Part shown: positions 8,535 to 33,262 of the stretch, piece after piece
How the letters are laid out: each line of letters starts with the position of its first letter
How positions within the stretch are numbered: the stretch's first letter is position 1
Source of the DNA: Escherichia coli
GTDB taxonomy: Bacteria > Pseudomonadota > Gammaproteobacteria > Enterobacterales > Enterobacteriaceae
Length of the DNA: 64,000 nt
Strand: one strand, 5' to 3'
Assembly: GCF_024223415.1 (NCBI RefSeq)
Contig: NZ_CP100500.1
Position numbers and translations under genes: made by a program
The notes under the pieces: model-generated
What the model saw: only the letters and a program-made list of their open reading frames with translations
What the model was told of the DNA's origin: nothing
The model's database searches: none

Positions 8535-8861
8535 ATGAGTAAGAAACTGATTGCCTTATGTGCCTGCCCGATGGGCCTGGCTCATACCTTTATGGCCGCT
8601 CAGGCGCTGGAAGAAGCAGCGGTAGAAGCCGGTTATGAAGTGAAAATTGAAACCCAGGGCGCGGACGGTATCCAGAATCGCCTGACGGCGCAGGATATCG
8701 CCGAAGCGACCATCATCATCCACTCCGTGGCAGTAACCCCGGAAGATAACGAACGTTTCGAATCACGCGATGTTTATGAAATCACTTTGCAGGACGCAAT
8801 TAAAAACGCTGCGGGCATCATCAAAGAAATCGAAGAGATGATTGCCTCTGAACAACAGTAA
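8535..8861 (+). CDS. fryB: PTS fructose-like IIB component FryB
   Basis: ORF 8484..8861; the 108-aa protein from internal Met MSKKLIALCACPMGLAHTF has the IIB Cys motif, and a GAGGA RBS precedes this ATG. Confidence 0.85.
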   Translation: MSKKLIALCACPMGLAHTFMAAQALEEAAVEAGYEVKIETQGADGIQNRLTAQDIAEATIIIHSVAVTPEDNERFESRDVYEITLQDAIKNAAGIIKEIEEMIASEQQ

Positions 8862-8882
8862 TATTCGACAGGGATAATTGTT

Positions 8883-10130
8883 ATGGCCATTAAAAAACGC
8901 AGTGCAACCGTTGTGCCTGGCGCATCCGGTGCGGCAGCGGCAGTTAAGAATCCGCAGGCCTCTAAAAGCAGCTTCTGGGGTGAACTCCCGCAGCATGTGA
9001 TGTCAGGGATTTCACGCATGGTGCCGACCTTAATTATGGGCGGTGTGATCCTCGCTTTCAGCCAGCTGATTGCTTATAGCTGGCTTAAAATTCCTGCTGA
9101 TATCGGCATCATGGATGCTCTTAATAGCGGGAAATTCTCCGGTTTCGACCTCTCCTTACTGAAATTTGCCTGGTTGTCGCAGTCCTTCGGCGGCGTGTTG
9201 TTTGGTTTTGCCATTCCGATGTTTGCTGCTTTTGTGGCGAACTCTATCGGTGGCAAACTGGCGTTTCCGGCTGGTTTTATCGGCGGCTTGATGTCTACCC
9301 AGCCGACGCAACTGCTGAACTTCGATCCCAGCACTATGCAATGGGCGACCTCTTCGCCGGTGCCGTCCACCTTCATTGGTGCGCTGATTATTTCTATCGT
9401 TGCCGGTTACCTTGTGAAATGGATGAACCAGAAAATCCAGTTACCGGATTTCCTGTTAGCGTTCAAAACCACATTTTTGCTACCGATTCTTTCCGCCATT
9501 TTTGTCATGCTGGCGATGTACTACGTCATCACCCCATTTGGTGGCTGGATCAACGGCGGTATCCGTACCGTGCTGACTGCCGCAGGTGAGAAGGGCGCGC
9601 TGATGTACGCAATGGGGATCGCCGCGGCGACAGCAATCGACCTTGGTGGCCCGATCAACAAAGCCGCAGGTTTTGTTGCCTTCAGCTTTACCACTGACCA
9701 CGTATTACCGGTCACCGCACGTTCTATCGCTATCGTTATTCCGCCGATTGGTCTGGGTCTGGCGACCATTATCGACCGTCGTTTAACCGGCAAACGCCTG
9801 TTCAACGCACAACTTTATCCGCAGGGTAAGACCGCGATGTTCCTTGCCTTTATGGGGATCAGTGAGGGTGCGATTCCGTTTGCACTGGAAAGCCCCATCA
9901 CCGCCATTCCGTCCTATATGGTCGGCGCGATTGTCGGCTCAACCGCCGCTGTCTGGTTGGGCGCAGTGCAATGGTTCCCGGAGTCCGCTATCTGGGCATG
10001 GCCACTGGTCACTAACCTCGGCGTCTACATGGCGGGGATCGCGCTGGGGGCAGTCATTACTGCGCTGATGGTGGTGTTCCTGCGTCTGATGATGTTCCGT
10101 AAAGGCAAATTGTTAATCGATAGCCTGTAA
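8883..10130 (+). CDS. fryC: PTS fructose-like IIC permease FryC
   Basis: 415-aa polytopic membrane ORF directly downstream of fryB. Confidence 0.85.
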
Positions 10131-10144
10131 GAAGGAAAATCCAG

Positions 10145-11230
10145 ATGACATTACTCGCTTCGCTGCGTGACTGGCTTAAGGCGCAACAACTGGATGCGGT
10201 GCTTCTCTCCTCACGGCAGAACAAACAGCCGCATCTGGGGATCTCCACCGGATCAGGCTATGTGCTGATTAGCCGTGAAAGTGCGCACATTCTGGTGGAC
10301 TCGCGCTATTACGCGGATGTAGAAGCCCGCACGCAAGGTTACCAGCTGCATTTGCTTGACGCGACGTACACGCTTACAACCATCGCCAGGCAAATCATTG
10401 CCGATGAGCAGTTGCAAACGCTCGGTTTTGAAGGCCAGCAGGTGAGTTGGGAAACCGCGCACCGCTGGCAGTCTGAACTCAATGCGAAACTGGTTAGCGC
10501 CACGCCGGATGTGCTGCGGCAAATCAAAACGCCAGAGGAGGTGGAGAAAATCCGCCTTGCCTGTGGGATTGCCGATCGCGGTGCAGAGCATATTCGCCGC
10601 TTTATTCAGGCGGGGATGAGCGAGCGCGAGATAGCCGCTGAACTGGAGTGGTTTATGCGCCAGCAGGGCGCAGAAAAAGCCTCTTTTGACACCATTGTTG
10701 CCAGTGGCTGGCGTGGGGCGCTGCCGCACGGCAAAGCCAGCGACAAGATTGTTGCAGCGGGCGAGTTTGTCACTCTCGATTTCGGTGCGCTCTATCAGGG
10801 CTACTGCTCTGATATGACGCGCACCTTGCTGGTGAATGGCGAAGGGGTGAGCGCCGAATCTCATCCGCTGTTTAACGTCTATCAGATTGTTTTGCAGGCA
10901 CAGCTCGCAGCAATCTCTGCAATTCGCCCCGGCGTGCGCTGCCAGCAGGTTGACGACGCCGCGCGTCGGGTGATTACCGAGGCAGGATTTGGCGACTATT
11001 TTGGTCACAACACCGGTCATGCTATTGGCATTGAAGTACACGAAGATCCGCGTTTTTCACCGCGGGACACCACGACGCTACAGCCAGGCATGTTGCTGAC
11101 CGTGGAGCCGGGGATTTATTTGCCAGGGCAAGGGGGCGTGCGCATCGAGGATGTTGTGCTGGTCACCCCGCAAGGCGCAGAAGTGCTCTACGCCATGCCG
11201 AAAACAGTGTTGCTCACGGGAGAGGCATAA
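10145..11230 (+). CDS. ypdF: M24-family Xaa-Pro aminopeptidase YpdF
   Basis: 361-aa ORF with a pita-bread metallopeptidase C-terminal region ([13 protein letters not shown]), in the ypdF position. Confidence 0.85.
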
Positions 11231-12267
11231 TGGATTTATCGCTATTGAAAGCGTTGAGCGAGGCAGATGCGATCGCCTCCTCGGAACAGGAAGTGCGGCA
11301 GATCCTGCTGGAAGAAGCGGATCGCCTGCAAAAAGAAGTGCGATTTGATGGGCTGGGATCGGTGCTGATCCGCCTCAATGAATCGACAGGTCCGAAAGTG
11401 ATGCTCTGTGCGCATATGGACGAAGTTGGATTTATGGTGCGCAGTATCTCCCGCGAAGGCGCAATTGATGTGCTGCCGGTTGGCAACGTGCGCATGGCTG
11501 CCCGCCAGCTGCAGCCGGTGCGCATCACCACCCGTGAAGAGTGCAAAATTCCAGGCCTGCTTGACGGCGACCGGCAGGGGAATGATGTCAGCGCCATGCG
11601 CGTGGATATTGGCGCGCGCTCGTATGACGAAGTGATGCAGGCGGGAATTCGTCCAGGCGATCGCGTCACGTTTGATACTACTTTTCAGGTTCTCCCTCAC
11701 CAGCGGGTGATGGGGAAAGCCTTTGATGACCGCCTCGGTTGCTACCTGCTGGTGACGTTACTGCGCGAACTACACAGCGCTGAACTGCCTGCGGAAGTGT
11801 GGCTGGTGGCCAGTTCCAGCGAAGAGGTGGGGTTACGCGGCGGGCAAACTGCCACCCGCGCGGTGTCGCCGGACGTCGCCATTGTCCTTGATACCGCCTG
11901 CTGGGCGAAAAACTTTGATTATGGCGCGGCTAACCATCGCCAGATTGGTAACGGCCCGATGCTGGTGTTAAGCGACAAGTCACTGATTGCGCCGCCAAAA
12001 CTCACCGCCTGGATCGAAACCGTGGCGGCAGAAATTGGCGTGCCGTTACAGGCGGATATGTTCAGTAACGGCGGCACGGACGGTGGAGCGGTGCACTTAA
12101 CCGGTACTGGCGTACCCGCAGTGGTGATGGGGCCTGCCACCCGCCACGGACATTGCGCCGCGTCGATTGCCGATTGCCGCGACATTTTGCAGATGGAGCA
12201 ACTTTTATCTGCCCTTATTCAACGTCTTACGCGTGAGACGGTTGTTCAACTGACGGATTTCAGATGA
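11230..12267 (+). CDS. ypdE: M42-family aminopeptidase YpdE
   Basis: 345-aa ORF; its start overlaps the ypdF stop (ATAATGG), in the ypdE position. Confidence 0.85.
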
Positions 12268-12291
12268 TCTCCTGATTAACCCGGAGCGGTT

Positions 12292-14787
12292 ATGTTAACG
12301 ATTCAATTTCTCTGTCCTTTGCCTAACGGTCTACATGCTCGTCCGGCGTGGGAACTTAAAGAACAGTGCAGCCAGTGGCAAAGCGAAATCACTTTTATTA
12401 ACCATCGCCAGAACGCAAAGGCCGATGCCAAAAGCTCGCTGGCGCTGATTGGCACCGGCACCTTATTTAATGACAGTTGCAGCCTGAACATTAGCGGCAG
12501 CGATGAAGAGCAGGCGCGGCGCGTGCTGGAAGAGTACATCCAGGTGCGCTTTATCGACAGCGACAGCATCCAGCCAACGCAGGCAGAACTGACGGCGCAT
12601 CCGCTGCCGCGTTCATTAAGTCGCCTGAACCCTGATTTACTGTATGGCAATGTGCTGGCAAGCGGCGTCGGTGTGGGGACGCTGACCCTGTTACAGAGCG
12701 ACAGCCTCGACAGTTACCGGGCGATCCCCGCCAGTGCGCAAGATTCCACCCGGCTGGAGCACAGCCTGGCAACGCTTGCCGAGCAACTGAACCAGCAATT
12801 GCGTGAGCGTGACGGCGAAAGCAAAACTATCCTCAGCGCCCATTTGTCGCTGATTCAGGATGATGAGTTCGCGGGCAATATCCGTCGCCTGATGACAGAA
12901 CAGCATCAGGGGCTGGGGGCGGCGATCATCAGCAATATGGAGCAGGTTTGCGCCAAACTTTCTGCTTCTGCCAGCGATTATCTGCGCGAACGTGTTAGCG
13001 ACATTCGCGATATTAGCGAACAGTTGCTGCATATTACCTGGCCGGAACTGAAGCCGCGCAACAATCTGGTTCTGGAAAAACCGACTATTCTGGTAGCCGA
13101 GGATTTAACCCCAAGCCAGTTTTTGAGCCTCGATTTAAAAAATCTTGCGGGCATGATTCTGGAGAAAACCGGGCGCACCTCGCATACCCTGATTCTGGCC
13201 CGCGCCTCGGCGATCCCGGTACTGAGCGGCCTGCCGCTGGATGCGATTGCCCGTTATGCCGGGCAACCTGCAGTGCTTGACGCCCAGTGCGGCGTGCTGG
13301 CGATTAACCCGAATGACGCGGTGAGCGGTTATTATCAGGTCGCGCAGACGCTGGCGGATAAACGCCAAAAACAACAGGCGCAGGCTGCCGCGCAGCTGGC
13401 TTATTCCCGTGATAACAAGCGTATTGATATCGCGGCGAATATTGGCACCGCTCTGGAAGCGCCTGGCGCGTTTGCCAACGGCGCGGAAGGCGTCGGGCTG
13501 TTCCGTACCGAAATGCTCTATATGGATCGCGACAGCGCGCCGGACGAGCAGGAGCAATTTGAAGCCTACCAGCAGGTGCTACTGGCAGCGGGCGACAAGC
13601 CGATTATCTTCCGCACAATGGACATCGGAGGCGATAAAAGCATTCCTTATCTGAATATTCCCCAGGAAGAGAACCCGTTCCTCGGCTATCGCGCGGTACG
13701 TATTTACCCGGAATTTGCTGGCCTGTTCCGCACTCAACTGCGGGCCATTTTGCGCGCCGCCAGTTTCGGCAACGCCCAGTTGATGATCCCGATGGTTCAC
13801 AGCCTCGATCAGATCTTATGGGTGAAGGGCGAGATCCAAAAAGCGATCGTTGAGCTTAAGCGCGATGGCCTGCGTCATGCAGAGACGATTACGCTGGGTA
13901 TCATGGTGGAAGTGCCGTCGGTGTGCTACATCATCGACCACTTCTGCGATGAGGTCGATTTCTTCAGTATCGGCTCCAACGATATGACCCAGTATCTGTA
14001 TGCGGTCGATCGTAATAACCCGCGCGTATCGCCGCTGTATAACCCGATTACGCCATCGTTCCTGCGCATGTTGCAGCAGATAGTTACCACTGCGCATCAG
14101 CGAGGCAAATGGGTAGGCATTTGCGGTGAACTGGGCGGTGAAAGCCGTTATCTGCCGCTACTGCTTGGGCTGGGCCTGGATGAGCTGAGTATGAGTAGCC
14201 CGCGCATTCCGGCGGTGAAAAGCCAGCTTCGTCAACTGGATAGCGAGGCGTGTCGGGAACTGGCACGTCAGGCGTGTGAATGTCGCAGCGCACAGGAAAT
14301 TGAAGCGTTACTCACCGCCTTTACGCCGGAAGAAGACGTTCGCCCGCTGCTGGCGCTGGAGAATATCTTCGTTGATCAGGCCTTTAGCAATAAAGAGCAG
14401 GCGATCCAGTTCCTGTGCGGTAACCTCGGCGTTAACGGGCGCACTGAACATCCGTTCGAGCTGGAAGAGGATGTCTGGCAGCGGGAAGAGATTGTCACCA
14501 CTGGCGTTGGTTTTGGCGTGGCGATCCCGCACACCAAATCTCAGTGGATCCGTCATTCCAGTATCAGCATTGCCCGGCTGGCGAAACCGGTTGACTGGCA
14601 GTCAGAAATGGGCGAAGTCGAACTGGTGATCATGCTGACGCTGGGTGCTAACGAAGGGATGAATCATGTGAAAGTCTTCTCGCAGCTGGCGCGTAAACTG
14701 GTGAATAAAAACTTCCGCCAGTCGTTGTTTGCCGCGCAAGATGCACAAAGTATCCTGACGCTGCTGGAAACAGAATTAACCTTCTGA
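12292..14787 (+). CDS. fryA: Multiphosphoryl transfer protein FryA (fused HPr/Enzyme I/IIA domains)
   Basis: 831-aa ORF containing an Enzyme I-like PEP-utilising region (GGRTSHTLILARA, GSNDMTQY motifs) plus additional PTS domains. Confidence 0.9.
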   Translation: MLTIQFLCPLPNGLHARPAWELKEQCSQWQSEITFINHRQNAKADAKSSLALIGTGTLFNDSCSLNISGSDEEQARRVLEEYIQVRFIDSDSIQPTQAELTAHPLPRSLSRLNPDLLYGNVLASGVGVGTLTLLQSDSLDSYRAIPASAQDSTRLEHSLATLAEQLNQQLRERDGESKTILSAHLSLIQDDEFAGNIRRLMTEQHQGLGAAIISNMEQVCAKLSASASDYLRERVSDIRDISEQLLHITWPELKPRNNLVLEKPTILVAEDLTPSQFLSLDLKNLAGMILEKTGRTSHTLILARASAIPVLSGLPLDAIARYAGQPAVLDAQCGVLAINPNDAVSGYYQVAQTLADKRQKQQAQAAAQLAYSRDNKRIDIAANIGTALEAPGAFANGAEGVGLFRTEMLYMDRDSAPDEQEQFEAYQQVLLAAGDKPIIFRTMDIGGDKSIPYLNIPQEENPFLGYRAVRIYPEFAGLFRTQLRAILRAASFGNAQLMIPMVHSLDQILWVKGEIQKAIVELKRDGLRHAETITLGIMVEVPSVCYIIDHFCDEVDFFSIGSNDMTQYLYAVDRNNPRVSPLYNPITPSFLRMLQQIVTTAHQRGKWVGICGELGGESRYLPLLLGLGLDELSMSSPRIPAVKSQLRQLDSEACRELARQACECRSAQEIEALLTAFTPEEDVRPLLALENIFVDQAFSNKEQAIQFLCGNLGVNGRTEHPFELEEDVWQREEIVTTGVGFGVAIPHTKSQWIRHSSISIARLAKPVDWQSEMGEVELVIMLTLGANEGMNHVKVFSQLARKLVNKNFRQSLFAAQDAQSILTLLETELTF

Positions 14788-20212: not shown

Positions 20213-21133
20213 TTAAATGTATAACGACGATTCTCCCACCGGGCGCGTTTTAAAGCGACGGTGGATCCAGAGGTACTGCTCCGGTGCGCGCATGATCTCT
20301 TTCTCGATAATCTTGTTCATATAGGCAGCGGCTTGATTTTCATCTGCCGGGTAGCCTTCCATCTCTGGGGTGATGAACAAACGATATCCGCTGTAATCCG
20401 CTTTTCTTACCATCGTTACGGTCAACATGGCTGCGCCAGAGAGACGGGAGAGAACATAGGTGCCATTGGTTGTGGCGACATTTTCTACCGCAAAGAACGG
20501 CGCGAAGGAGCTGCCTTTACGACCATAATCCTGATCGGGAGCAAACCATACCGCTTCACCTTTCTTCAGTGCACTGACAATGCCGCGCAGATTATTTCTG
20601 CCGATCATCGCTTTGTTAGAGCGCATGCGACCACGGGTCTGCACCCATTCCATCAGCTGATTATTATGTGGACGATAGGTAGCCATCATTGGCTGACAAA
20701 GTCCCATCACGCGGCCGCCCAGTTCCAGCGACATAAAATGGACGCCGACAACCATTACGCCGCGATTTTGCATTTGTGCGCGTTTAAGGTTATCCAGCCC
20801 TTCAACATCAAACCATTTACGTACGCGACTGTCGGGCCAGAACCACGCCATGCCGGTTTCTACCAACGCCATGCCGAGTGAACGAAAGTTTTCGGCAATC
20901 ATCTTCTCGCGTTCTTCCGCAGAATGCTGCGGGAAGCAAAGTTCCAGGTTTTTACGGGCGATAGATTCACGCCGTTTCAGGAATGGTCGCGCCATTGCGC
21001 CAATACGCGTGCCGAGAAAGCAGAGAACAGGATAAGGAAGCTGTACCCAAAGCCAGAGTACACCAAGCCCAAACCATGTGAGCCAGTAGCGAGGATGCAT
21101 AAACTCGCGGGAAAATTTGCATTGTGGAAACAT
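20213..21133 (-). CDS. lpxP: Cold-induced lipid A palmitoleoyltransferase LpxP
   Basis: ORF 20213..21199; LpxL/LpxP-family acyltransferase. The 306-aa protein from internal Met MFPQCKFSREFMHPRYWLTW matches LpxP, and the gene sits in the lpxP position next to alaC. Confidence 0.85.
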   Translation of the reverse strand: MFPQCKFSREFMHPRYWLTWFGLGVLWLWVQLPYPVLCFLGTRIGAMARPFLKRRESIARKNLELCFPQHSAEEREKMIAENFRSLGMALVETGMAWFWPDSRVRKWFDVEGLDNLKRAQMQNRGVMVVGVHFMSLELGGRVMGLCQPMMATYRPHNNQLMEWVQTRGRMRSNKAMIGRNNLRGIVSALKKGEAVWFAPDQDYGRKGSSFAPFFAVENVATTNGTYVLSRLSGAAMLTVTMVRKADYSGYRLFITPEMEGYPADENQAAAYMNKIIEKEIMRAPEQYLWIHRRFKTRPVGESSLYI

Positions 21134-21485
21134 AGTTACCTTCTGTAGATACGAATTGTTGTATCGCAGAAGATTCCATGTCGACAGCGGTACACTCAAT
21201 TGATTAGGCCATCATGTACGACAATGGTTCCTGTAAAGAGTGTAAAGACTAGTCAGGACATAACCACGAGGAGCATGAATGCGGTATCTGTACTTTATCA
21301 CTCGCTGACTGCTTTCAGCTACTGATTATTAATCGTGCAAAGTAAATATTTTTCCGTACACAACAGTCTTGCATTTAACATGCTGTTTTCATTGATGCTT
21401 AGCAAAAATTGCCAGAGGTTAAGGATTGTCTTACTATTAAAGTGACTGAAGTTACAGGTTTTTTAGCGCGGCAGGAGGTTGAGCT

Positions 21486-21728
21486 ATGATTTATTTATGG
21501 ATGTTTCTCGCCCTGTGTATTGTCTGCGTAAGCGGATACATCGGTCAGGTACTGAACGTGGTATCGGCGGTCTCTTCTTTCTTCGGCATGGTGATCCTCG
21601 CTGCACTCATTTATTACTTCACCATGTGGTTAACTGGCGGTAATGAACTGGTGACGGGGATATTTATGTTTCTTGCCCCGGCTTGTGGCTTGATGATTCG
21701 CTTTATGGTGGGGTATGGCAGGCGGTAG
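21486..21728 (+). CDS. yfdY: DUF2545 inner membrane protein YfdY
   Basis: 80-aa ORF with two to three predicted TM segments, in the yfdY position. Confidence 0.7.
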   Translation: MIYLWMFLALCIVCVSGYIGQVLNVVSAVSSFFGMVILAALIYYFTMWLTGGNELVTGIFMFLAPACGLMIRFMVGYGRR

Positions 21729-21804
21729 TGGGTCAGGATGGCTCATTTGGGCAGGTGTTCACATCACCATCAGACATGATTGTTCACCTGCCAGGTGACA
21801 GACG

Positions 21805-22080
21805 CTATCGCACAGGATGAATAAGATAATTCGCCTTTGTCGGAAAAGGGGGCGTGGTTTCTTCTGTGAGGTTTAATGGTGGCGCATCTTCTCTCATCTT
21901 AAACAAAATTGCCTGTGATGGCTGAAGTTTTGTAGAGTGAGTTGTCGTCATCGCTGATGTTTTTTCCGTCTCTTTATAGCTCCTCTCACTTCCACCACCA
22001 GAAATGGAAAATGCAAAAACATTGCATGCCATAATAGAGACCAATAAAAATAAGCTAAAAAGCATTAAGTTTACTTTCAT
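21805..22080 (-). CDS. ypdI: Small putative lipoprotein YpdI
   Basis: 91-aa ORF with a signal peptide and a Cys in a lipobox-like context (VSIMAC), in the ypdI position. Confidence 0.7.
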   Translation of the reverse strand: MKVNLMLFSLFLLVSIMACNVFAFSISGGGSERSYKETEKTSAMTTTHSTKLQPSQAILFKMREDAPPLNLTEETTPPFPTKANYLIHPVR

Positions 22081-22222
22081 AGAAAGTTATCCTGAAAATG
22101 GTTCACTGAAAACCTACGACGTTATGGCTGTATTTACATATAATTAATCAGTATTTACATCGATATAATAAATGACATCTCTTTGTGGTATATAAGAATA
22201 GTTCTCTGTGACAGGAAGCAGA

Positions 22223-22240
22223 TTCCTACAACTGTAAGAT
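22223..22240 (+). promoter_or_regulatory. EvgA box upstream of yfdX (site 1)
   Basis: TTCCTACA-AC-TGTAAGAT, an 18-bp inverted repeat of the EvgA-box form TTCYTACA-N2-TGTARGAA. Confidence 0.55.
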
Positions 22241-22261
22241 TAAAATACTTCTTGCGATAAT

Positions 22262-22279
22262 AACTACAAGTGTAAGATA
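22262..22279 (+). promoter_or_regulatory. EvgA box-like motif upstream of yfdX (site 2)
   Basis: AACTACA-AG-TGTAAGATA; right half-site matches well, left half is weaker. Confidence 0.4.
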
Positions 22280-22375
22280 ACCCTTTCAAAATGACCGTTG
22301 CTCTCTGATTTCTCATTTCATGCTCACCCAATATGATGGCGGCGTTTTCTAAAACTGTTAAAGAATGAGGTAAGT

Positions 22376-23008
22376 ATGAAACGTTTAATTATGGCTACGA
22401 TGGTCACAGCTATTCTGGCATCTTCAACTGTATGGGCTGCTGATAATGCACCGGTAGCGGCACAACAGCAAACTCAGCAAGTTCAGCAAACCCAGAAAAC
22501 GGCAGCAGCAGAGCGTATCTCTGAACAAGGTTTATATGCGATGCGTGACGTGCAGGTAGCGCGCCTGGCTCTGTTTCATGGCGATCCGGAAAAGGCAAAA
22601 GAACTGACCAATGAAGCTTCCGCTTTGTTGTCAGATGACAGTACCGAATGGGCAAAGTTCGCTAAGCCAGGTAAAAAGACCAATCTCAATGATGACCAAT
22701 ATATTGTCATTAATGCATCTGTCGGAATTTCTGAGAGTTATGTAGCGACACCCGAAAAAGAAGCCGCGATAAAAATTGCCAATGAAAAAATGGCGAAAGG
22801 GGATAAAAAGGGCGCAATGGAAGAGCTTCGCCTGGCCGGTGTTGGTGTAATGGAAAACCAATATCTGATGCCGCTTAAACAGACTCGTAATGCACTTGCT
22901 GATGCGCAGAAACTGCTTGATAAAAAGCAATACTACGAGGCAAACCTGGCGCTTAAAGGTGCGGAAGATGGAATCATCGTCGATAGCGAAGCACTGTTTG
23001 TGAACTAA
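22376..23008 (+). CDS. yfdX: Periplasmic YfdX-family protein (EvgA regulon)
   Basis: 210-aa ORF with a signal peptide ([21 protein letters not shown]); conserved position upstream of frc. Confidence 0.85.
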
Positions 23009-23251
23009 TGCTGACTGGCAGTATATTGAGGTAAAGGATTTAACTCCCTCCAGCCGACAATTTTTTATGACCACAATACGACAGGTTGTGGTCATAAAAT
23101 TATTTGGCGCTCGCTGTTCTATAAACTCGCATTTTATATTCCTCAAAGTAAACCGCAATAATCCCGTGTCATCACAAATCATTTAATATGTTATATTTTA
23201 TGGTACGCTTTAAAAAGCGTAATCATACCCTTACTTGTAAATCACCGGCGC

Positions 23252-23269
23252 TTCTTACAGTTGTAAGAA
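23252..23269 (+). promoter_or_regulatory. EvgA box upstream of frc
   Basis: TTCTTACA-GT-TGTAAGAA: the two 8-nt halves are exact reverse complements, and it lies about 250 nt upstream of frc. Confidence 0.6.
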
Positions 23270-23520
23270 TAACATCACAAATGTCGCGGCTCTCTCTGAT
23301 TACCGCGAACCAATATTTATCATATTCTTCTTTTCGTCCTCACTACTTACCATGCAGAAAGGAATTGGAAGTGGCGATGAAATGATTTTCAGCACTTGAT
23401 ACAGGAATTTAAAAATATCGAGTGCCGCTACGACGATATTTTGCGGATTATTTATAGAGGGCGTTATGCCTTAAATAAACGCTAAATTAACACATATTTA
23501 ATTAACTAATAGGTATTGCT

Positions 23521-24771
23521 ATGTCAACTCCACTTCAAGGAATTAAAGTTCTCGATTTCACCGGTGTGCAATCTGGCCCATCTTGTACTCAAATGCTGGC
23601 CTGGTTTGGCGCTGACGTCATTAAAATTGAACGCCCCGGCGTTGGTGACGTAACGCGTCACCAGCTGCGAGATATTCCTGATATCGATGCGCTTTACTTC
23701 ACCATGCTTAACAGTAACAAACGTTCTATTGAGTTAAATACCAAAACAGCGGAAGGCAAAGAGGTAATGGAAAAGCTGATCCGCGAAGCTGATATCTTAG
23801 TCGAGAACTTTCATCCAGGGGCCATTGATCACATGGGTTTCACCTGGGAGCATATTCAAGAAATCAATCCACGTCTGATTTTTGGTTCGATCAAAGGGTT
23901 TGATGAGTGTTCGCCTTATGTGAATGTAAAAGCCTATGAAAACGTTTCTCAGGCAGCGGGTGGCGCGGCATCCACTACGGGTTTTTGGGACGGTCCGCCG
24001 CTGGTAAGCGCTGCAGCGTTAGGAGACAGCAACACCGGAATGCATTTGCTGATCGGTTTACTTGCTGCTTTGCTGCATCGCGAAAAAACGGGGCGTGGGC
24101 AACGAGTCACCATGTCAATGCAGGATGCCGTATTGAACCTTTGCCGCGTGAAATTACGCGACCAGCAGCGTCTCGATAAATTGGGTTATCTGGAAGAATA
24201 CCCGCAGTATCCGAATGGTACATTTGGTGATGCAGTTCCCCGTGGTGGTAATGCGGGTGGTGGCGGTCAACCTGGATGGATCCTGAAATGTAAAGGCTGG
24301 GAAACAGATCCTAACGCCTATATTTATTTCACTATTCAGGAGCAAAACTGGGAAAACACCTGTAAAGCCATCGGCAAACCAGATTGGATTACCGATCCGG
24401 CATACAGTACAGCCCATGCCCGACAGCCACATATTTTCGATATTTTTGCTGAAATCGAAAAATACACTGTCACTATTGATAAACATGAAGCGGTGGCCTA
24501 TTTGACTCAATTTGATATTCCTTGTGCACCGGTTTTAAGTATGAAAGAAATTTCACTTGATCCCTCTTTGCGCCAAAGTGGCAGTGTTGTCGAAGTGGAA
24601 CAACCGTTGCGTGGAAAATATCTGACAGTTGGTTGTCCAATGAAATTCTCTGCCTTTACGCCAGATATTAAAGCTGCGCCGCTATTAGGTGAACATACCG
24701 CTGCTGTATTGCAGGAGCTGGGTTATAGCGACGATGAAATTGCTGCAATGAAGCAAAACCACGCCATCTGA
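23521..24771 (+). CDS. frc: Formyl-CoA:oxalate CoA-transferase (family III CoA transferase)
   Basis: 416-aa ORF starting [40 protein letters not shown], matching Frc/YfdW. Confidence 0.95.
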
Positions 24772-24824
24772 TATTAACGGGGGCTTCTGGCTCCCAATTT
24801 ATAAAAATTTCGAGGTTATTAATC

Positions 24825-26519
24825 ATGTCAGATCAACTTCAAATGACAGATGGTATGCATATCATCGTTGAAGCATTAAAACAGAATAATATTGACACTA
24901 TTTATGGTGTTGTAGGTATTCCTGTGACGGATATGGCGCGCCATGCCCAGGCGGAAGGCATTCGTTATATTGGTTTTCGTCATGAGCAGTCGGCAGGCTA
25001 TGCCGCTGCGGCAAGCGGTTTTCTTACCCAAAAACCAGGGATCTGCCTGACAGTGTCTGCGCCAGGATTCCTCAATGGTTTGACCGCATTGGCCAACGCA
25101 ACGGTAAATGGTTTTCCGATGATCATGATTAGCGGCTCCAGCGACCGCGCGATCGTCGACCTACAGCAAGGTGATTATGAAGAGCTGGACCAAATGAATG
25201 CGGCAAAACCGTATGCCAAAGCAGCATTTCGCGTTAATCAGCCGCAGGATCTTGGCATTGCATTGGCACGCGCTATCCGGGTCTCAGTATCGGGTCGCCC
25301 TGGCGGAGTTTATCTTGATTTGCCAGCAAATGTCCTGGCCGCGACGATGGAAAAAGACGAAGCGTTAACCACGATTGTAAAAGTTGAAAATCCGTCGCCA
25401 GCATTATTGCCATGCCCGAAGTCAGTCACTAGCGCAATTTCGCTTTTAGCAAAAGCTGAACGGCCATTAATTATCCTTGGCAAAGGCGCGGCGTATTCAC
25501 AAGCTGACGAACAACTTCGTGAATTTATTGAAAGTGCCCAGATTCCATTCCTGCCAATGTCTATGGCGAAAGGGATCCTCGAAGATACGCATCCACTTTC
25601 TGCGGCAGCTGCGCGTTCGTTTGCCCTGGCAAATGCTGACGTTGTCATGCTTGTTGGTGCACGACTGAATTGGTTACTGGCACACGGTAAAAAAGGATGG
25701 GCGGCAGATACACAGTTTATTCAACTGGATATTGAACCGCAGGAAATTGACAGCAACCGCCCCATTGCTGTGCCAGTCGTTGGCGATATTGCATCCAGTA
25801 TGCAAGGTATGCTGGCAGAACTGAAACAAAACACATTTACGACTCCACTGGTATGGCGCGATATTTTAAATATCCACAAGCAGCAAAATGCACAAAAAAT
25901 GCATGAAAAATTAAGTACAGATACCCAACCATTAAATTACTTTAATGCATTAAGTGCTGTGCGCGATGTATTGCGTGAGAACCAGTATATTTATTTAGTT
26001 AATGAAGGTGCAAATACCCTGGATAATGCACGAAATATTATTGATATGTATAAACCACGTCGTCGTCTGGATTGTGGTACCTGGGGTGTCATGGGCATCG
26101 GTATGGGCTATGCCATCGGTGCTAGCGTGACCTCTGGTTCTCCGGTTGTCGCCATTGAAGGTGATAGTGCTTTTGGTTTCAGTGGGATGGAGATTGAAAC
26201 GATTTGTCGATATAACCTGCCGGTGACGATCGTTATTTTTAATAATGGCGGCATCTACAGAGGAGACGGTGTTGATCTCAGTGGCGCTGGTGCACCATCA
26301 CCAACAGATCTGTTGCACCATGCAAGGTATGACAAATTAATGGATGCGTTTCGTGGCGTTGGCTATAACGTCACCACGACAGATGAACTTCGTCATGCTT
26401 TAACCACCGGTATTCAGTCGCGCAAACCGACCATTATTAATGTGGTCATCGACCCTGCAGCAGGAACTGAAAGTGGCCATATTACCAAACTTAACCCAAA
26501 ACAAGTCGCTGGTAATTAA
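24825..26519 (+). CDS. oxc: Oxalyl-CoA decarboxylase (ThDP-dependent)
   Basis: 564-aa ORF with ThDP-enzyme organisation and a GDSAFGF-type ThDP-binding motif, directly after frc. Confidence 0.95.
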   Translation: MSDQLQMTDGMHIIVEALKQNNIDTIYGVVGIPVTDMARHAQAEGIRYIGFRHEQSAGYAAAASGFLTQKPGICLTVSAPGFLNGLTALANATVNGFPMIMISGSSDRAIVDLQQGDYEELDQMNAAKPYAKAAFRVNQPQDLGIALARAIRVSVSGRPGGVYLDLPANVLAATMEKDEALTTIVKVENPSPALLPCPKSVTSAISLLAKAERPLIILGKGAAYSQADEQLREFIESAQIPFLPMSMAKGILEDTHPLSAAAARSFALANADVVMLVGARLNWLLAHGKKGWAADTQFIQLDIEPQEIDSNRPIAVPVVGDIASSMQGMLAELKQNTFTTPLVWRDILNIHKQQNAQKMHEKLSTDTQPLNYFNALSAVRDVLRENQYIYLVNEGANTLDNARNIIDMYKPRRRLDCGTWGVMGIGMGYAIGASVTSGSPVVAIEGDSAFGFSGMEIETICRYNLPVTIVIFNNGGIYRGDGVDLSGAGAPSPTDLLHHARYDKLMDAFRGVGYNVTTTDELRHALTTGIQSRKPTIINVVIDPAAGTESGHITKLNPKQVAGN

Positions 26520-26588
26520 ATACTGACATCGTCTCCTCTTGCCAACTCATTATGCGAAGGTGAGGGGACCCTTATCGGAAATACTATT

Positions 26589-27533
26589 ATGCTAACATTT
26601 TTTATTGGCGATTTATTGCCTATTATCGTAATCATGCTGTTGGGTTATTTTAGCGGCAGACGAGAAACTTTTTCAGAAGATCAAGCCCGGGCATTTAATA
26701 AACTGGTATTAAACTACGCTCTTCCTGCGGCTCTATTTGTTTCTATTACCCGGGCAAACAGGGAAATGATTTTTGCGGACACTCGTCTGACCCTTGTATC
26801 ACTTGTGGTTATTGTCGGATGTTTCTTTTTCTCCTGGTTTGGTTGCTACAAATTTTTTAAACGTACCTATGCAGAAGCAGCTGTATGTGCATTAATTGCA
26901 GGTTCACCTACCATTGGATTCCTGGGATTTGCAGTTCTCGATCCTATTTATGGTGATTCCGTATCAACAGGTTTAGTGGTAGCAATTATTTCTATTATTG
27001 TTAACGCAATTACTATTCCTATTGGTCTGTATTTGCTGAATCCTTCCTCAGGAGCGGATGGTAAGAAGAATAGTAATCTGAGCGCATTAATTTCTGCGGC
27101 AAAGGAGCCTGTAGTATGGGCACCTGTTCTGGCAACGATCCTGGTGCTGGTTGGGGTAAAAATTCCGGCAGCATGGGACCCAACCTTTAATCTGATTGCG
27201 AAGGCTAACTCAGGGGTAGCGGTATTCGCTGCGGGGTTGACTCTGGCTGCACATAAATTCGAGTTCAGTGCCGAAATTGCTTATAACACCTTCCTGAAGC
27301 TGATTCTGATGCCACTGGCGCTGCTTCTTGTTGGTATGGCATGTCATTTGAACAGCGAACATCTGCAGATGATGGTACTGGCAGGCGCATTACCGCCGGC
27401 ATTCTCCGGAATCATTATTGCCAGCCGGTTTAATGTCTACACCCGCACTGGTACAGCGTCATTGGCTGTGAGCGTACTGGGTTTTGTCGTCACGGCTCCC
27501 TTGTGGATTTATGTCAGTCGACTGGTTTCATAA
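26589..27533 (+). CDS. yfdV: AEC-family membrane transporter YfdV
   Basis: 314-aa polytopic membrane ORF in the yfdV position of the oxalate cluster. Confidence 0.85.
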
Positions 27534-27606
27534 TTAATCATGTTATTGATTTTACATAAATGCCGAAGTGTCTTTTCACCTTCGGCTTTTTTCAAGGCAT
27601 AAGCAA

Positions 27607-28752
27607 ATGACAAATAATGAAAGCAAAGGGCCGTTTGAAGGCTTATTAGTTATCGATATGACACATGTCCTTAATGGACCTTTCGGAACTCAACTTCTTT
27701 GTAATATGGGCGCAAGGGTAATTAAAGTTGAGCCACCAGGTCATGGTGATGATACCCGCACATTTGGTCCCTATGTGGATGGACAGTCACTCTATTACAG
27801 TTTTATTAATCATGGTAAAGAGAGTGTGGTTCTTGATTTAAAGAATGATCACGATAAAAGTATATTTATAAATATGCTTAAACAAGCTGATGTATTAGCT
27901 GAGAATTTTCGCCCAGGTACAATGGAAAAACTGGGGTTTTCATGGGAAAGGTTACAAGAAATCAACCCGCGCCTCATATATGCTTCATCGTCAGGTTTCG
28001 GACATACCGGTCCGCTAAAAGATGCTCCTGCCTACGATACCATCATTCAGGCAATGAGCGGGATAATGATGGAAACAGGGTACCCTGATGCTCCGCCAGT
28101 GCGTGTTGGTACCTCTCTTGCGGATCTATGCGGCGGTGTTTATTTATTCAGCGGAATAGTGAGTGCACTTTATGGCCGCGAAAAGAGCCAAAGAGGGGCG
28201 CATGTCGATATAGCGATGTTTGATGCCACGCTGAGTTTTCTGGAGCATGGTCTGATGGCATATATTTCGACAGGGAAGTCACCACAACGCCTGGGAAATC
28301 GCCATCCCTACATGGCACCTTTTGATGTTTTCGATACTCAGGATAAGCCGATTACGATTTGTTGTGGTAATGACAAGCTTTTTTCTGCGTTATGCCAGGC
28401 ACTGGAGCTTACGGAACTGGTTAATGATCCCAGATTTAGCAGCAATATTTTACGCGTACAAAACCAGGCTATTCTTAAACAATATATTGAGCGGACGTTA
28501 AAAACGCAGGCAGCTGAAGTTTGGTTAGCCAAAATACATGAAGTCGGTGTGCCCGTAGCGCCGTTATTAAGTGTGGCTGAGGCCATTAATTTGCCACAAA
28601 CTCAGGCGAGAAATATGTTGATTGAAGCCGGAGGAATAATGATGCCGGGTAATCCGATAAAAATCAGCGGCTGCGCGGACCCGCATGTTATGCCGGGAGC
28701 GGCAACGCTCGACCAGCATGGGGAACAAATTCGCCAGGAGTTCTCATCATAA
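27607..28752 (+). CDS. yfdE: Acetyl-CoA:oxalate CoA-transferase YfdE (family III CoA transferase)
   Basis: ORF 27568..28752; a 381-aa product from internal Met MTNNESKGPFEGLLVIDMTHVLNGPFG matches YfdE and is a paralogue of Frc. Confidence 0.85.
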   Translation: MTNNESKGPFEGLLVIDMTHVLNGPFGTQLLCNMGARVIKVEPPGHGDDTRTFGPYVDGQSLYYSFINHGKESVVLDLKNDHDKSIFINMLKQADVLAENFRPGTMEKLGFSWERLQEINPRLIYASSSGFGHTGPLKDAPAYDTIIQAMSGIMMETGYPDAPPVRVGTSLADLCGGVYLFSGIVSALYGREKSQRGAHVDIAMFDATLSFLEHGLMAYISTGKSPQRLGNRHPYMAPFDVFDTQDKPITICCGNDKLFSALCQALELTELVNDPRFSSNILRVQNQAILKQYIERTLKTQAAEVWLAKIHEVGVPVAPLLSVAEAINLPQTQARNMLIEAGGIMMPGNPIKISGCADPHVMPGAATLDQHGEQIRQEFSS

Positions 28753-28807: not shown

Positions 28808-31800
28808 TTAGTTATTTTGTTGACAGAAAACAGCAATCTCCTGGTCCAGCTCTGCAATGTGTTCTTTTACAGAGTTCAGCAACTGAAGAATTTCAGGCTT
28901 ACTGTCATCTGAAACAGGTGTTATTTCTAACTGATGGCTAATATTAATCAACTTTTGCAAATTCAGGATGTTAGCCGCACCGTGGATGCGATGAATACAC
29001 TGATGGAAAGTTCTATTATCGCCAGCTTCTAGTGCATGAAACGCAGCGGATAAATCTTTATGTGTTTCATGCTGGAAAGTCATGAGAATCTCCTGCATCA
29101 GTTGTAGATCGTTCGCCGTATTATTTTTCAGGGCCTCGATATCAAGGTGGCGATACTGAGGTACAATATGCGCAACCTGGTGTAACTGACTTAAATGTGT
29201 TTTCAGTACATCCAGGGTCAACGGTTTGAACAAACATAAGTTCATGCCGCAATTTAACCCTTTTTCACGTTCGTTAGCCTGTGCGTTGGCTGTAAGCCCC
29301 CAGATGGGTAAGGACGAATTTTGCTCACGGAGTTTGCGAGTCAACTCAAAACCATCCATATTCGGCATATTAACGTCAGTAATAAGCAGATCATAATGTT
29401 GCATACTGACTTTGTGTAGCGCTTGCACACCATCAGTGGCTTCGTCAACATCATATCCTAATAGATTTAGCTGGCGTTTGAGTAATAGCCTGTTGGTCGG
29501 ATGATCATCCGCGATTAATATGCTCAACTTTTCAGGTAGTGTGATAGGTTGTTCTGCTTTTGCCTCGACAGCCGCCACTTGTTGGGTAATTTCTACCGGG
29601 ATTGTGATCGTAAATGTTGTTCCTATGCCTGGATGACTTTCTAATGACAAATCACCCTGCATGTTTTTAATTAATTCTTTGCAGATCATTAAGCCTAAAC
29701 CAGAACCTGTTTGCTGACGACCTGCACTTGTTTGGCTATAACGTTTAAACAGTTGTTGTTGTTCTTCCTGTGATAATCCACTTCCAGAATCCATAATCGT
29801 CATTTTGATTACAGCGTGGTTGTCATCAATGTGAACCAGGGCGGTCGTAATTTTTACTGCCCCCTCGGTGGTAAATTTGAGAGCATTACTCAGTAAATTT
29901 GATAAGAGCTGCTTAAACGCCTGAGGGTCGATCTTAACCAGGTAATGTTCAGGAAACGTACTGCTGCAACTTAATGCGATCGATTTGCTTGCAGTAATCG
30001 CACCGAAAGAGTGACAAGTGTTCTGGACTAAAGTAGGAATATCGACCCATTGTGGTTGAAGTTGATAGTTACCCGATTCAATTTTGTCGACATCAAGGAT
30101 TTCACCAATTAAGCCGAGGAGTGATTGTCCGGTGGCGTAGGCAAGTGAAATCGCCTCCACCCGTTGTTCCTTGCTAAGACCAGAACCCGACAGAAGTTCC
30201 AGGAAGCCCATAATGGAGCTTATTGGTGTTCTTATTTCGTGACTCATTGTTGCCAGAAACTGACTTTTTGCGACAGTTGCATTGATCGCTTTATTTCTCT
30301 CTACTTCGAGTGCATGAATTAAATCACGCGTCTCGGTAATATCTTGCCAACCACAAATATAAACAGCATGTTCGCTGGCTGGCAGATTACATAATGTATG
30401 CCAGTGATTAATGCATCTTTTCTCGATGCCATTATCAATTTCAAATACCTGTGTGTATATTGTTCGGTTTTCTTTCGTCTCTGCTGTGACTTCATGCGTA
30501 TTAGAAAAAACATCTTTAAAGGGTGATTCACTGTTTTCTAATGGCAACATTGCATTTTTGTAGTAATCAGCAGTGAAATAATGTTCAAATGCACTATTGT
30601 GACTAATGACATTACCTTGCCAGTTTACAACATAAGTTGGATTCGGTAAGGAGTCCGAGAGCGCTTTCCGGAATGATATTTGGTTTTCTAAATCACCCTG
30701 AATGACTTTACGACGACGAACTGAGCGTAACAGGTAGAATCCCCATAAAAGGCTACTGCCAACTAATAAAACGGATAATGTCGTAACAATATAAAATTGC
30801 TCGCTATAGAGGTCCCATGTGTCAATGGTCACATTGGGCATTTTAATCCATTTTTCGGTCAGGCGCAGAACTTCGCTTGGGGGGATTGCATTCAGTGCTT
30901 TATTAATAATATCCTTAAGTTCCGGTTCTCCGCGAGGAAAAGCGAACGAAAGCGATGCATTCGGAACGCCGGGAATAAGAAAATGATAAAGTTCATTAGG
31001 ATAGTAATGGTCGATCATGTAACGTGAATTTAACTGTGTCGCGACCAGAGCATCAAGTTCGCCTTCCTTGACCTTGTGAAATGCAGCGCTGGCGTTATCG
31101 ACTTTTATCCACTCTACCTCCGGATACATCTCTTTTAATTGCGAATGAAGCTCATAATAATATGGAATGGCAACTTTCATTCCTTTTTTTAATGTTTGTT
31201 CACTGTCAGGCGCTTTTTGCATGACAAAAACGTAAGGCGTTGTTATGAAGGCTTCAGCAAATAAAACATTATTTTCTCTATCTTCACTATAAATAGCACC
31301 GGGTAATATATCCCATCCGCCGGGATTCAGCTGTGTTCCGGCATGGATATTGTGTGAAACGGTGATCGGAGAAAAATTTAAACCTGTTTGCAAGGTAATA
31401 ATATTAAGAATGTCCCCCATAACGCCCCGAACCGAGCCATTTTCATCCGTCATAGAATAGGGGGGCGAGTAAGGATTTTCCAGCACCTTTAAATCGGGAT
31501 GCTGCTTAATCCACTGTTTTTCATGTTCAGTGAGTTCTAATGGCTTGTTCAGAAAGGCCAGGTTTCCTGTATCAAGCCAATTTTGTGATACTTCATAGCG
31601 AACTTCATTTGTTAAAGCATCAACAAATCGATTGAGTACTTCATTAAGAATGACAGATTCTTTTCTGGTTAAGAAGAAGTTATATTGACGCGGTGAGTTA
31701 TAATATTTCACTACATTTAAGGAGTGAGTGAAATAGCGGGAAATCATACTGCTGGTAATGATGTTACTACCAATAAAGTAATCATTCTGTCCGGCTGAGA

Positions 31801-32401
31801 CGGATGCTAATGCCTGATATAAATTTGTAAAAGAGATAATTGTTGCTTTTGGAAATGATTGATGAATTACCTCGTCAGGGGGATAATTTGCTACTCGAGC
31901 AATATTTACTGGTTTTGATGAGGTAAGCGGTCGCATTGAATCGTGAAGGGTGGTGACCAGTGCCGGAAAGGTAATTATCAGTGGTTTGGTTGCAGCAATG
32001 TCATCATTAAGAGGCGGCGAAGTAACTAAATGTGATAACACTATATCGACTTCACCTTCTTCCAGCGCGTCCATTGCTTTTTGATGATCGGCGTATTCCC
32101 GGAGTGTTAATTTGATATTTAACGCTCTTTTTAAAAGATTTAAATAATCAGCATTAATACCACGAACCCGTTGCTGCGAATCGGTATGCAACAACGTAGC
32201 CGTTTGGGACTTGTGTACTGCAATCACAAGATTTTTTTTGCTCGCTAACCAACGTAATTCCTTGTTGCTCAGACGTAGTGGATCAAGTGTGACACGGTTG
32301 TTACTACTGATGCCACGGTATTCGATGTAATCTTCGTCTGCGAAACTTATGGTCGACCAAAGACCACAACAGAGAAGAAAAATATAGGGTAAAAACTTCA
32401 T
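28808..32401 (-). CDS. evgS: Hybrid sensor histidine kinase EvgS
   Basis: 1197-aa ORF with a signal peptide, two periplasmic solute-binding-like domains, HisKA/ATPase, receiver and HPt domains. Confidence 0.95.
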   Translation of the reverse strand: MKFLPYIFLLCCGLWSTISFADEDYIEYRGISSNNRVTLDPLRLSNKELRWLASKKNLVIAVHKSQTATLLHTDSQQRVRGINADYLNLLKRALNIKLTLREYADHQKAMDALEEGEVDIVLSHLVTSPPLNDDIAATKPLIITFPALVTTLHDSMRPLTSSKPVNIARVANYPPDEVIHQSFPKATIISFTNLYQALASVSAGQNDYFIGSNIITSSMISRYFTHSLNVVKYYNSPRQYNFFLTRKESVILNEVLNRFVDALTNEVRYEVSQNWLDTGNLAFLNKPLELTEHEKQWIKQHPDLKVLENPYSPPYSMTDENGSVRGVMGDILNIITLQTGLNFSPITVSHNIHAGTQLNPGGWDILPGAIYSEDRENNVLFAEAFITTPYVFVMQKAPDSEQTLKKGMKVAIPYYYELHSQLKEMYPEVEWIKVDNASAAFHKVKEGELDALVATQLNSRYMIDHYYPNELYHFLIPGVPNASLSFAFPRGEPELKDIINKALNAIPPSEVLRLTEKWIKMPNVTIDTWDLYSEQFYIVTTLSVLLVGSSLLWGFYLLRSVRRRKVIQGDLENQISFRKALSDSLPNPTYVVNWQGNVISHNSAFEHYFTADYYKNAMLPLENSESPFKDVFSNTHEVTAETKENRTIYTQVFEIDNGIEKRCINHWHTLCNLPASEHAVYICGWQDITETRDLIHALEVERNKAINATVAKSQFLATMSHEIRTPISSIMGFLELLSGSGLSKEQRVEAISLAYATGQSLLGLIGEILDVDKIESGNYQLQPQWVDIPTLVQNTCHSFGAITASKSIALSCSSTFPEHYLVKIDPQAFKQLLSNLLSNALKFTTEGAVKITTALVHIDDNHAVIKMTIMDSGSGLSQEEQQQLFKRYSQTSAGRQQTGSGLGLMICKELIKNMQGDLSLESHPGIGTTFTITIPVEITQQVAAVEAKAEQPITLPEKLSILIADDHPTNRLLLKRQLNLLGYDVDEATDGVQALHKVSMQHYDLLITDVNMPNMDGFELTRKLREQNSSLPIWGLTANAQANEREKGLNCGMNLCLFKPLTLDVLKTHLSQLHQVAHIVPQYRHLDIEALKNNTANDLQLMQEILMTFQHETHKDLSAAFHALEAGDNRTFHQCIHRIHGAANILNLQKLINISHQLEITPVSDDSKPEILQLLNSVKEHIAELDQEIAVFCQQNN

Positions 32402-32405: not shown

Positions 32406-33020
32406 TTAGCCGATTTTGTTACGTTGTGCGAATGTGTAAAGATCCATCAGTGATTTACATTCTAATTTTTCCATCAGGCGACTTTTATAAGTGCTGACAG
32501 TTTTGTTGCTGATGAACATTTTTTCAGCAATGTCATTATTATCCTTGCCATCAAGAATATAGCGCATGACACTAATTTCTTGTTTCGATAAGGAGTCGAG
32601 TTTTTGCTGGTCGGACGTTAAACTTCCAACAAACCGGTTGAGAGAGAAGGGGAAATAGCAGTAGCCATTTTTTGCAGCTTCAATAGCCGCAATGATATTG
32701 TTCATGCCTTCTTTTTTACTCACGAAACCATTAGCGCCAGCATCAGCACAATGTTTCCCGTAAAAATGGTCATTTTTAGCGGAGACGATAATAATAATTC
32801 CGCTATATTGGCGCTTCCTCAGCGTTTCTAACACCTGGATACCGTTAACTCCGGGGATATCGACATCAATGATGACGATATCAGGCTTAAGTGTTTCCAC
32901 CCGCTGAACGGCACTTCCGCCTTCAGTCAACTCTGCTAAGATTTCAATATCGTTTTTGATCAATAAATTACGAATTGCTGCGATAGCAAGAGGATGGTCA
33001 TCAATAATTATTGCGTTCAT
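32406..33020 (-). CDS. evgA: Response regulator EvgA (NarL/FixJ family)
   Basis: 204-aa ORF starting MNAIIIDDHPLAIAAIRNLLIKNDIEILAEL with a LuxR-type HTH C-terminus. Confidence 0.95.
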   Translation of the reverse strand: MNAIIIDDHPLAIAAIRNLLIKNDIEILAELTEGGSAVQRVETLKPDIVIIDVDIPGVNGIQVLETLRKRQYSGIIIIVSAKNDHFYGKHCADAGANGFVSKKEGMNNIIAAIEAAKNGYCYFPFSLNRFVGSLTSDQQKLDSLSKQEISVMRYILDGKDNNDIAEKMFISNKTVSTYKSRLMEKLECKSLMDLYTFAQRNKIG

Positions 33021-33245
33021 AGATTATTCCCTTTGCAATGAAGCATCTCCCTTCTCCCTGTAGTAATACAGACATAAGGCATCATCTCATTTTCTCAATA
33101 AAAATAAGAAAATTTGAGCTTCCTTTAAGATAATTCGACAAGTATACCATATAAATAGTCGGCATATATGAAATGTCAACAATAAAATCAGGGATTATAC
33201 CGATGATTTATAGTTTCAAGTTAGCACTATAAGTCTTCTCACTAA

Positions 33246-33262
33246 TCCTACAGGCGTAAGAA
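33246..33262 (+). promoter_or_regulatory. EvgA box in the evgA-emrK divergent promoter region
   Basis: TCCTACA-GGCG-TAAGAA, resembling the EvgA-box half-sites with non-canonical spacing. Confidence 0.45.

Follow-up and report, generated by a model that had tools for sequence, protein, structure and literature searches.

The three palindromes upstream of yfdX and frc are very probably EvgA boxes, through which EvgA would activate two promoters, i.e., that of yfdX and that of frc-oxc-yfdV-yfdE. The existence of EvgA boxes at yfdX and frc is already known: the regulatory link dates back about twenty years and is re-derived here from the sequence alone, and the main finding is ordinary. Minor by-products of the analysis are: (i) a predicted assignment of the two yfdX boxes as proximal and distal; (ii) a geometry in which the box would be centred at about -74.5; (iii) a structurally constrained hairpin; (iv) a polymorphism in box copy number.

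The mechanism proposed would be as follows. At mildly acidic pH, EvgS would phosphorylate EvgA, and the phosphorylated EvgA dimer (NarL/FixJ-type, encoded about 9 kb away) would recognise 18-bp operators. Bound to a box whose centre is about 74 bp before the start, EvgA would activate two separate, activator-dependent sigma-70 promoters with a weak -35, one of them driving yfdX and the other frc-oxc-yfdV-yfdE. The proximal box of yfdX (22261-22278) would be assisted by an extra distal box (22223-22240), and frc would depend on a single perfect box. A conserved hairpin terminator after yfdX would insulate both units, at least partly.

Direct control of yfdX and of the frc cluster by EvgA, as proposed by the sequence-only reading, is supported by the literature together with the motif, its conservation and its geometry. 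According to their abstract, Masuda and Church reportedly identified with AlignACE, for the seven operons under direct regulation, an 18-bp inverted repeat present in six of the upstream regions; they are also said to have shown the binding of EvgA by gel shifts, an assay that stands in for the footprinting proposed as a check. Mullins et al. 2013, citing Masuda & Church 2003, state that the inverted repeats in front of yfdX and of yfdWUVE are bound by EvgA. A PyfdX-yfp fusion is described as «directly activated by phosphorylated EvgA», and PyfdX is in use as a standard reporter for the activity of EvgS/EvgA in natural isolates (Roggiani et al. 2017, PMC5706723). The transcriptome of a constitutive evgS allele, which had been proposed as a check, is already published (Johnson et al. 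2014, PMC4283999) and all five genes are induced, with log2 values of 8.37 for frc (the most induced gene), 6.97 for yfdX, 6.59 for oxc, 6.16 for yfdV and 3.57 for yfdE. In the same work, the upstream regions of all genes with strong induction were searched for EvgA sites, which turned up at known EvgA targets only; emrKY is one of the known targets (PMC4283999). As to the reporter fusions also proposed, the yfdX half has been realized, i.e., PyfdX (PMC5706723), and no separate frc reporter was found in the literature search. A search of the literature for the consensus string or for «EvgA box» found no paper quoting the sequence.

Location and enrichment of the boxes

The window, i.e., the whole stretch of DNA analysed, is a 64,000-nt segment of an E. 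coli chromosome, in the orientation opposite to that of K-12. Positions 21800-23600 are present in 5,422 of the 5,426 complete E. coli genomes compared, with a 100% match to strain SCU-316. Gene names were transferred from an annotated E. coli chromosome matching at 100%. In this annotation, ypdI (21805-22080, minus strand) is followed on the plus strand by yfdX (22376-23008), which encodes a periplasmic YfdX-family protein (Pfam PF10938, E = 2.9e-44), then by frc (23521-24771), oxc (24825-26519), yfdV (26589-27533) and yfdE (27607-28752). The last four genes make up the oxalate / acid-tolerance operon frc-oxc-yfdV-yfdE (23521-28752, plus strand). The sensor kinase gene evgS (28808-32401) and the response regulator gene evgA (32406-33020) come next on the minus strand, and emrK starts at 33436 on the plus strand, emrKY being also contained in the window. 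A domain search found in EvgA a Response_reg domain and a GerE/LuxR helix-turn-helix; such a make-up is of the kind expected to read a palindrome as a dimer.

The consensus TTCYTACA-N2-TGTARGAA (18 bp), which reportedly originates from Masuda and Church, was re-derived here from six promoters. The window was searched with the pattern TTCYTACANNTGTARGAA, the chance level being obtained from 100 dinucleotide shuffles. With at most 1 mismatch, 2 matches were found vs. 0.00 expected in the 64-kb window; with at most 3 mismatches, 4 matches vs. 0.66 expected (4 was reached by 1 of the 100 shuffles). The four matches are all located between genes, ahead of members of the EvgA regulon.

The three palindromes claimed upstream of yfdX and frc are all among them; no strand is assigned to these boxes. 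Box 1 of yfdX, TTCCTACAACTGTAAGAT, is located at 22223-22240 and has 1 mismatch to the consensus. Box 2 of yfdX, TAACTACAAGTGTAAGAT, noted as (T)AACTACAAGTGTAAGAT(A), is located at 22261/2-22278/9 and departs from the consensus by 3 mismatches, which all fall in outer positions. The frc box, TTCTTACAGTTGTAAGAA, at 23252-23269, has 0 mismatches and is a perfect palindrome: each of its 8-nt arms is the exact reverse complement of the other, as the sequence-only reading had it. The fourth match, ATCCTACAGGCGTAAGAA (33245-33262, 2 mismatches, likewise without strand), lies in the divergent intergenic region of emrK/evgA, another classical EvgA-controlled region, and serves as an internal positive control.

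It must be noticed that palindromy by itself is unremarkable, since perfect 8-N2-8 palindromes number 3 in the window vs. about 1.2 expected; the signal consists of the specific motif and its placement. One of these perfect palindromes, TACGCTTTAAAAAGCGTA (23204-23221), lies 48 bp before the frc box and was taken as chance because it is variable among E. coli strains and absent in Yersinia. A 65-aa open reading frame extending across the frc box (23188-23385) was judged spurious on account of the indels found there among alleles.

Conservation of the boxes and occurrence of the motif at other targets

Nine E. coli alleles were compared, i.e., those of the window, of K-12, of one divergent E. 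coli and of six strains taken from different ranks of the BLAST results. The core half-site positions of the three boxes are variable in 0 of 39 cases, the spacer or outermost box positions in 6 of 15, and the remainder of both intergenic regions in 163 of 753 (core vs. rest, Fisher p = 1e-4). The half-sites are under purifying selection, from which the spacer is spared. In box 1 the spacer and the last base alone vary; in box 2 the core CTACA-N2-TGTAAGA is invariant; in the frc box the spacer alone varies.

The comparison was extended to other species by a search for YfdX. With only 9 loci recovered, including a fragment of 241 bp, the phylogenetic footprint is thin. A contig of Yersinia vastinensis carries the whole cluster yfdX-frc-oxc-yfdV-yfdE-evgS, with 80-96% amino-acid identity. 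Upstream of frc, similarity between Yersinia and E. coli is lost above the box and comes back exactly at TTCTTACACGCGTAAGAA, to continue for ~40 nt; the frc box and the following 40 nt are the best-conserved block of the 512-bp yfdX-frc intergenic region. Upstream of yfdX, conservation with Yersinia extends from just before box 1, whose counterpart is TTCTTACCGGTATAAGAC, through box 2 and the predicted promoter, and box 2 is contained in the best-conserved block of this region.

Six species of Buttiauxella have yfdX beside an evgSA-like pair, without frc/oxc between them. Two tandem palindromes are present upstream of their yfdX, 20 bp apart, with half-sites TCTGACA/TGTCAGA, followed by the same CTCTGATTT element as in E. 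coli. A co-evolution of the TCTGACA half-site with the EvgA-like protein of Buttiauxella was considered and dropped, because that regulator and the EvgA of E. coli have identical recognition helices. The variant half-site is read as probably lying within the same specificity.

The motif is also present at independently established EvgA targets unlinked to the cluster. The K-12 reference was fetched for three targets outside the window, and upstream regions of K-12 contain one copy of the 18-mer each at ydeP (AGCCTACACCTGTAAGAA), safA (TGCCTACAGCTGTAAGAA), yegR (TTCCTACTTATGTAGGAA) and emrK/evgA. The frc box of K-12 is identical to that of the window, and the differences between K-12 and the window in the yfdX boxes are confined to the 2-bp spacer and the last base.

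Predicted promoter geometry and the tandem yfdX boxes

The promoters of ydeP, safA, yegR, emrK, frc and yfdX (box 2) were aligned on the box, without gaps. All have a -10-like hexamer 48-57 nt after the box, mostly at 53-54; the offset is 54 for safA, yegR, emrK, frc and yfdX box 2. For emrK, the hexamer is TAAATT at offset 54 from the 33245-33262 box, in the direction of emrK. In five of the six promoters, the expected -35 begins with «TT». All six have CA (offsets 9-10) and TC (offsets 26-27) downstream of the box, which is a weak hint (circular-shift control, 137/5000).

The predicted core promoter of yfdX (22309-22337, plus strand) has a weak -35, TTTCTC/TTCTCA (22309-22315), and the -10 TATGAT (22332-22337). 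It was found by the promoter scan and is invariant in the nine E. coli alleles; its -10 is also conserved in Yersinia. The transcription start is predicted at about 22344. The predicted core promoter of frc (23300-23328, plus strand) has the weak -35 TTACCG (23300-23305, offset 31) and the -10 TATTCT (23323-23328), an arrangement also seen at safA, yegR, emrK and yfdX box 2. In Yersinia this -10 becomes TATTAT, and the alternative candidate TATCAT is lost. Initiation would take place at about 23335, leaving a leader of about 186 nt. From these predicted starts, the centres of yfdX box 2 and of the frc box would be at about -74.5. The common box-to-(-10) distance gives testable predictions of the starts of yfdX and frc.

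The promoter scan did not pick out the -35/-10 pair of frc, and the sigma-70-like sites that it found are not enriched (6 vs. 4.6 in shuffles). The literature search found no start-site data for frc downstream of the box. Folding of the predicted frc leader (23335-23530) gave z = -2.5, and an Rfam scan of 21000-24000 (E <= 1) returned no match, i.e., no known riboswitch or leader in the long 5' region of frc.

The sequence-only reading had called the 22261-22278 box the weaker one of yfdX. It is indeed the poorer match with its 3 mismatches, yet it would be promoter-proximal, at the canonical distance from the predicted -10: no -10 hexamer occurs at the canonical offset after box 1 and TATGAT is at offset 54 after box 2, therefore box 2 is probably the proximal one. 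Box 1, the better match, would then be an extra distal site, 38 bp further upstream, at about -112; this division of labour is suggested by the placement of the hexamers.

Boxes 1 and 2 of yfdX have a 15-bp core in common and are 38 bp apart. In strain Z1322HEC0009, a tandem duplication of 38 bp creates a third box, and the diagnostic duplication junction is found in 414 of the 5,426 complete E. coli genomes (about 8%). Strain IBS28 has four yfdX boxes. The reciprocal single-box junction, searched in two versions, occurs in none of the 5,426 genomes. The position of the promoter-proximal box is unchanged in every allele. A crude literature search found no mention of this copy-number polymorphism. 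A joint reading may be considered, which is possible though rather doubtful: a variable number of boxes, made by recombination, would tune the output of yfdX between strains, on a fixed -74.5 architecture in which the weaker box would contact RNA polymerase. If extra distal boxes alter the threshold or the amplitude of the acid induction, the region would be a copy-number-variable operator array tuning one output of EvgS/EvgA, and variation in box number would come on top of the natural variation already known for EvgS. PyfdX alleles with extra boxes could also be relevant to comparisons of native yfdX expression among strains.

Alternative explanations and related systems

The sequence-only reading had suggested a possible internal promoter for frc-oxc-yfdV-yfdE, and this proposal gains support from a -10 at the shared offset, from the hairpin and from the stronger induction of frc. 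The opposite explanation is that frc has no promoter of its own: frc-oxc-yfdV-yfdE would be transcribed by read-through from yfdX alone, and the perfect palindrome would be a distal or redundant EvgA site, a roadblock or an architectural element. We consider this very improbable. Between yfdX and frc, the terminator scan found a terminator-like hairpin (TTTTATGACCACAA...TTGTGGTCATAAAA, 23063-23099, plus strand) with a stem of 14-15 bp and a fold of -25.4 kcal/mol (z = -6.1). It is structurally constrained: the stem is unchanged in Yersinia, in which loop and flanks differ, and strain EC476 has a compensatory change from A:T to G:C at 23070/23092. Only 4 of the 15 stem pairs are G-C and the T-tract is modest (5 T in 8). 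The hairpin is predicted to insulate the yfdX and frc units at least in part, with an efficiency that may be incomplete. Read-through from yfdX probably contributes to the expression of frc, because the T-tract is modest and because the unit is often named «yfdXWUVE» in the literature. The weak T-tract and the name «yfdXWUVE operon» in several papers are also what speaks for read-through alone, together with the failure of the consensus scan to detect the frc -35/-10 pair and the unusually long distance (252 bp) from the box to the frc ATG. This last point loses its force, since the ydeP box is likewise 252 bp before its ATG and a long leader is thus not unusual for the regulon. Against read-through alone stand the frc -10, whose offset is that of five other EvgA promoters and whose sequence is improved in Yersinia (TATTAT), and the conservation of the frc box with the 40 nt after it. 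Induction of frc exceeds that of yfdX (log2 8.37 vs. 6.97), although a lower baseline, and not a promoter of its own, could account for the higher fold change. Finally, Mullins 2013 (citing Masuda & Church 2003) gives yfdX and yfdWUVE as induced separately and as having an inverted repeat each. Taken with the sequence, the data support a separate, predicted EvgA-dependent promoter for frc.

The other alternative concerns the protein that reads the palindromes, which would be mainly another regulator of the NarL/FixJ family, e.g., RcsB alone or with GadE, and not EvgA. RcsB and EvgA half-sites may have TAAGAA/TTCCTA-like words in common, a point to be counted in favour of RcsB. An RcsB-box match with 2 mismatches, TAGGAATCTGCTTC (22215-22228), overlaps box 1 in its left half; none occurs at box 2 or at the frc box, and over the window the matches to KMRGAWTMWYCTGS are near chance (58 vs. 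43.8 expected, 58 being reached by 3 of 100 shuffles). An RcsB box is thus marginal at box 1 and absent at the other two, and was rejected as an explanation of the palindromes. In Klebsiella pneumoniae, the production of YfdX at acid pH requires RcsB, which binds PyfdX (PMC6394985). The 18-bp motif is, on the contrary, specifically common to the direct EvgA targets ydeP, safA, yegR and emrK, and both EvgA dependence and EvgA binding are published. It is thus extremely improbable that another regulator is the main reader of these sites; RcsB could still co-regulate yfdX without displacing EvgA.

With EvgA retained as the regulator, the boxes of the window can be compared with known systems. The direct EvgA regulon of K-12 (ydeP, safA-ydeO, yegR, emrKY/evgAS, yfdX, yfdWUVE; Masuda & Church 2003) has the same 18-bp inverted repeat. 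None of the boxes of the window is different in kind from those of K-12, the window strain having polymorphisms in the spacer and outer bases, and the predicted box-to-(-10) distance is common to the boxes of the window and to the K-12 regulon.

Loci linked to KvhAS / KvgAS in Klebsiella and the loci of Buttiauxella resemble that of E. coli, since yfdX adjoins a two-component system of EvgAS type; they differ by the absence of frc-oxc-yfdV-yfdE between yfdX and the kinase gene. Like E. coli, Buttiauxella has two tandem palindromes and the CTCTGATTT element before yfdX, but its boxes are 20 bp apart vs. 38 in E. coli and have the half-site TCTGACA/TGTCAGA. Klebsiella differs in that the regulator demonstrated for yfdX is RcsB (PMC6394985).

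A further comparison can be made with Bordetella. Among the homologues of EvgA that have been characterised, BvgA is the closest known. In both systems an inverted repeat (heptads in the case of BvgA) is located well upstream of an activator-dependent promoter, at -88.5 for fhaB. At BvgA promoters, low-affinity secondary sites are filled cooperatively down to the -35, whereas EvgA promoters give weak hints of such sites, and the consensus half-sites of the two regulators differ.

EvgA boxes and the promoter element downstream

The two EvgA boxes upstream of yfdX form a direct repeat with a 38-bp spacing (22226-22278 in the window; 427-520 and 326-457 in the E. coli loci L015 and L020, respectively), and their copy number differs among strains. 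Two boxes represent the state of most strains. Three boxes result from a 38-bp tandem duplication, whose junction is present in 414 of the 5,426 complete genomes, and strain IBS28 has four. Two junction sequences expected of a single-box allele were searched in the complete E. coli genomes, and neither revealed such an allele.

The yfdX and frc promoters also share the element GCNCTCT(CT)GATT, localized directly upstream of the weak predicted -35 (22300-22310 for yfdX and 23289-23301 for frc) and found as well in the yfdX promoters of Buttiauxella (about 7925-7940 in loci L007 and L008). Downstream of the box, the six EvgA promoters, i.e., ydeP, safA, yegR, emrK, frc and yfdX (box 2), all carry CA (offsets 9-10) and TC (offsets 26-27), with weak statistical support (137/5000 circular shifts). 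The shared element and positions could correspond to secondary EvgA contacts, or to promoter paralogy.

Other repeats and the hairpin between yfdX and frc

Besides the frc EvgA box, the sequence TACGCTTTAAAAAGCGTA (23204-23221), localized 48 bp upstream of it, is also a perfect 8-N2-8 palindrome. This palindrome varies among E. coli strains and is not present in Yersinia, and is therefore probably due to chance. The hairpin of the same intergenic region (23063-23099) carries in strain EC476 a compensatory double substitution, A:T to G:C at 23070/23092, and its stem is unchanged in the Yersinia copy of the cluster; taken together, these two results indicate that the structure is under selection.

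It must be noted that a direct repeat with two copies of GTATTTACAT(A/C), 21 bp apart, precedes the EvgA boxes in the ypdI-yfdX divergent region (22130-22169); this repeat may be part of the ypdI promoter or else relate to another regulator.

The evgL leader and a YfdX fragment

The K-12 annotation contains evgL, a 9-codon leader ORF that overlaps the start of evgA (1730-1759 in the K-12 locus L002, equivalent to about 33020-33050 on the minus strand in the window); the strain that matches the window has no evgL entry in its annotation. A 241-bp scaffold of a Lactobacillus assembly (Limosilactobacillus vaginalis, L013) encodes the last 54 residues of YfdX with 100% identity to E. coli, and is almost certainly a contamination of that assembly.

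The cluster in Yersinia and the yfdX locus in Buttiauxella

In Yersinia vastinensis, a 590-kb contig (NZ_CACVAF010000001.1; L006, whole locus) contains an E. coli-like yfdX-frc-oxc-yfdV-yfdE-evgS cluster with 80-96% amino-acid identity. This is far above expectation for the genus and suggests that the whole regulon module, EvgA boxes included, moved by horizontal transfer.

In Buttiauxella (L007-L012, about 7860-12840), an evgSA-like pair directly adjoins yfdX without frc/oxc (EvgA 70% identical, kinase about 38-40%), and an additional box, TGACTACATGTGTAGGAA, is found upstream of the evgA-like gene. This arrangement suggests that the linkage of yfdX to an EvgA-type regulator predates the insertion of the oxalate genes.
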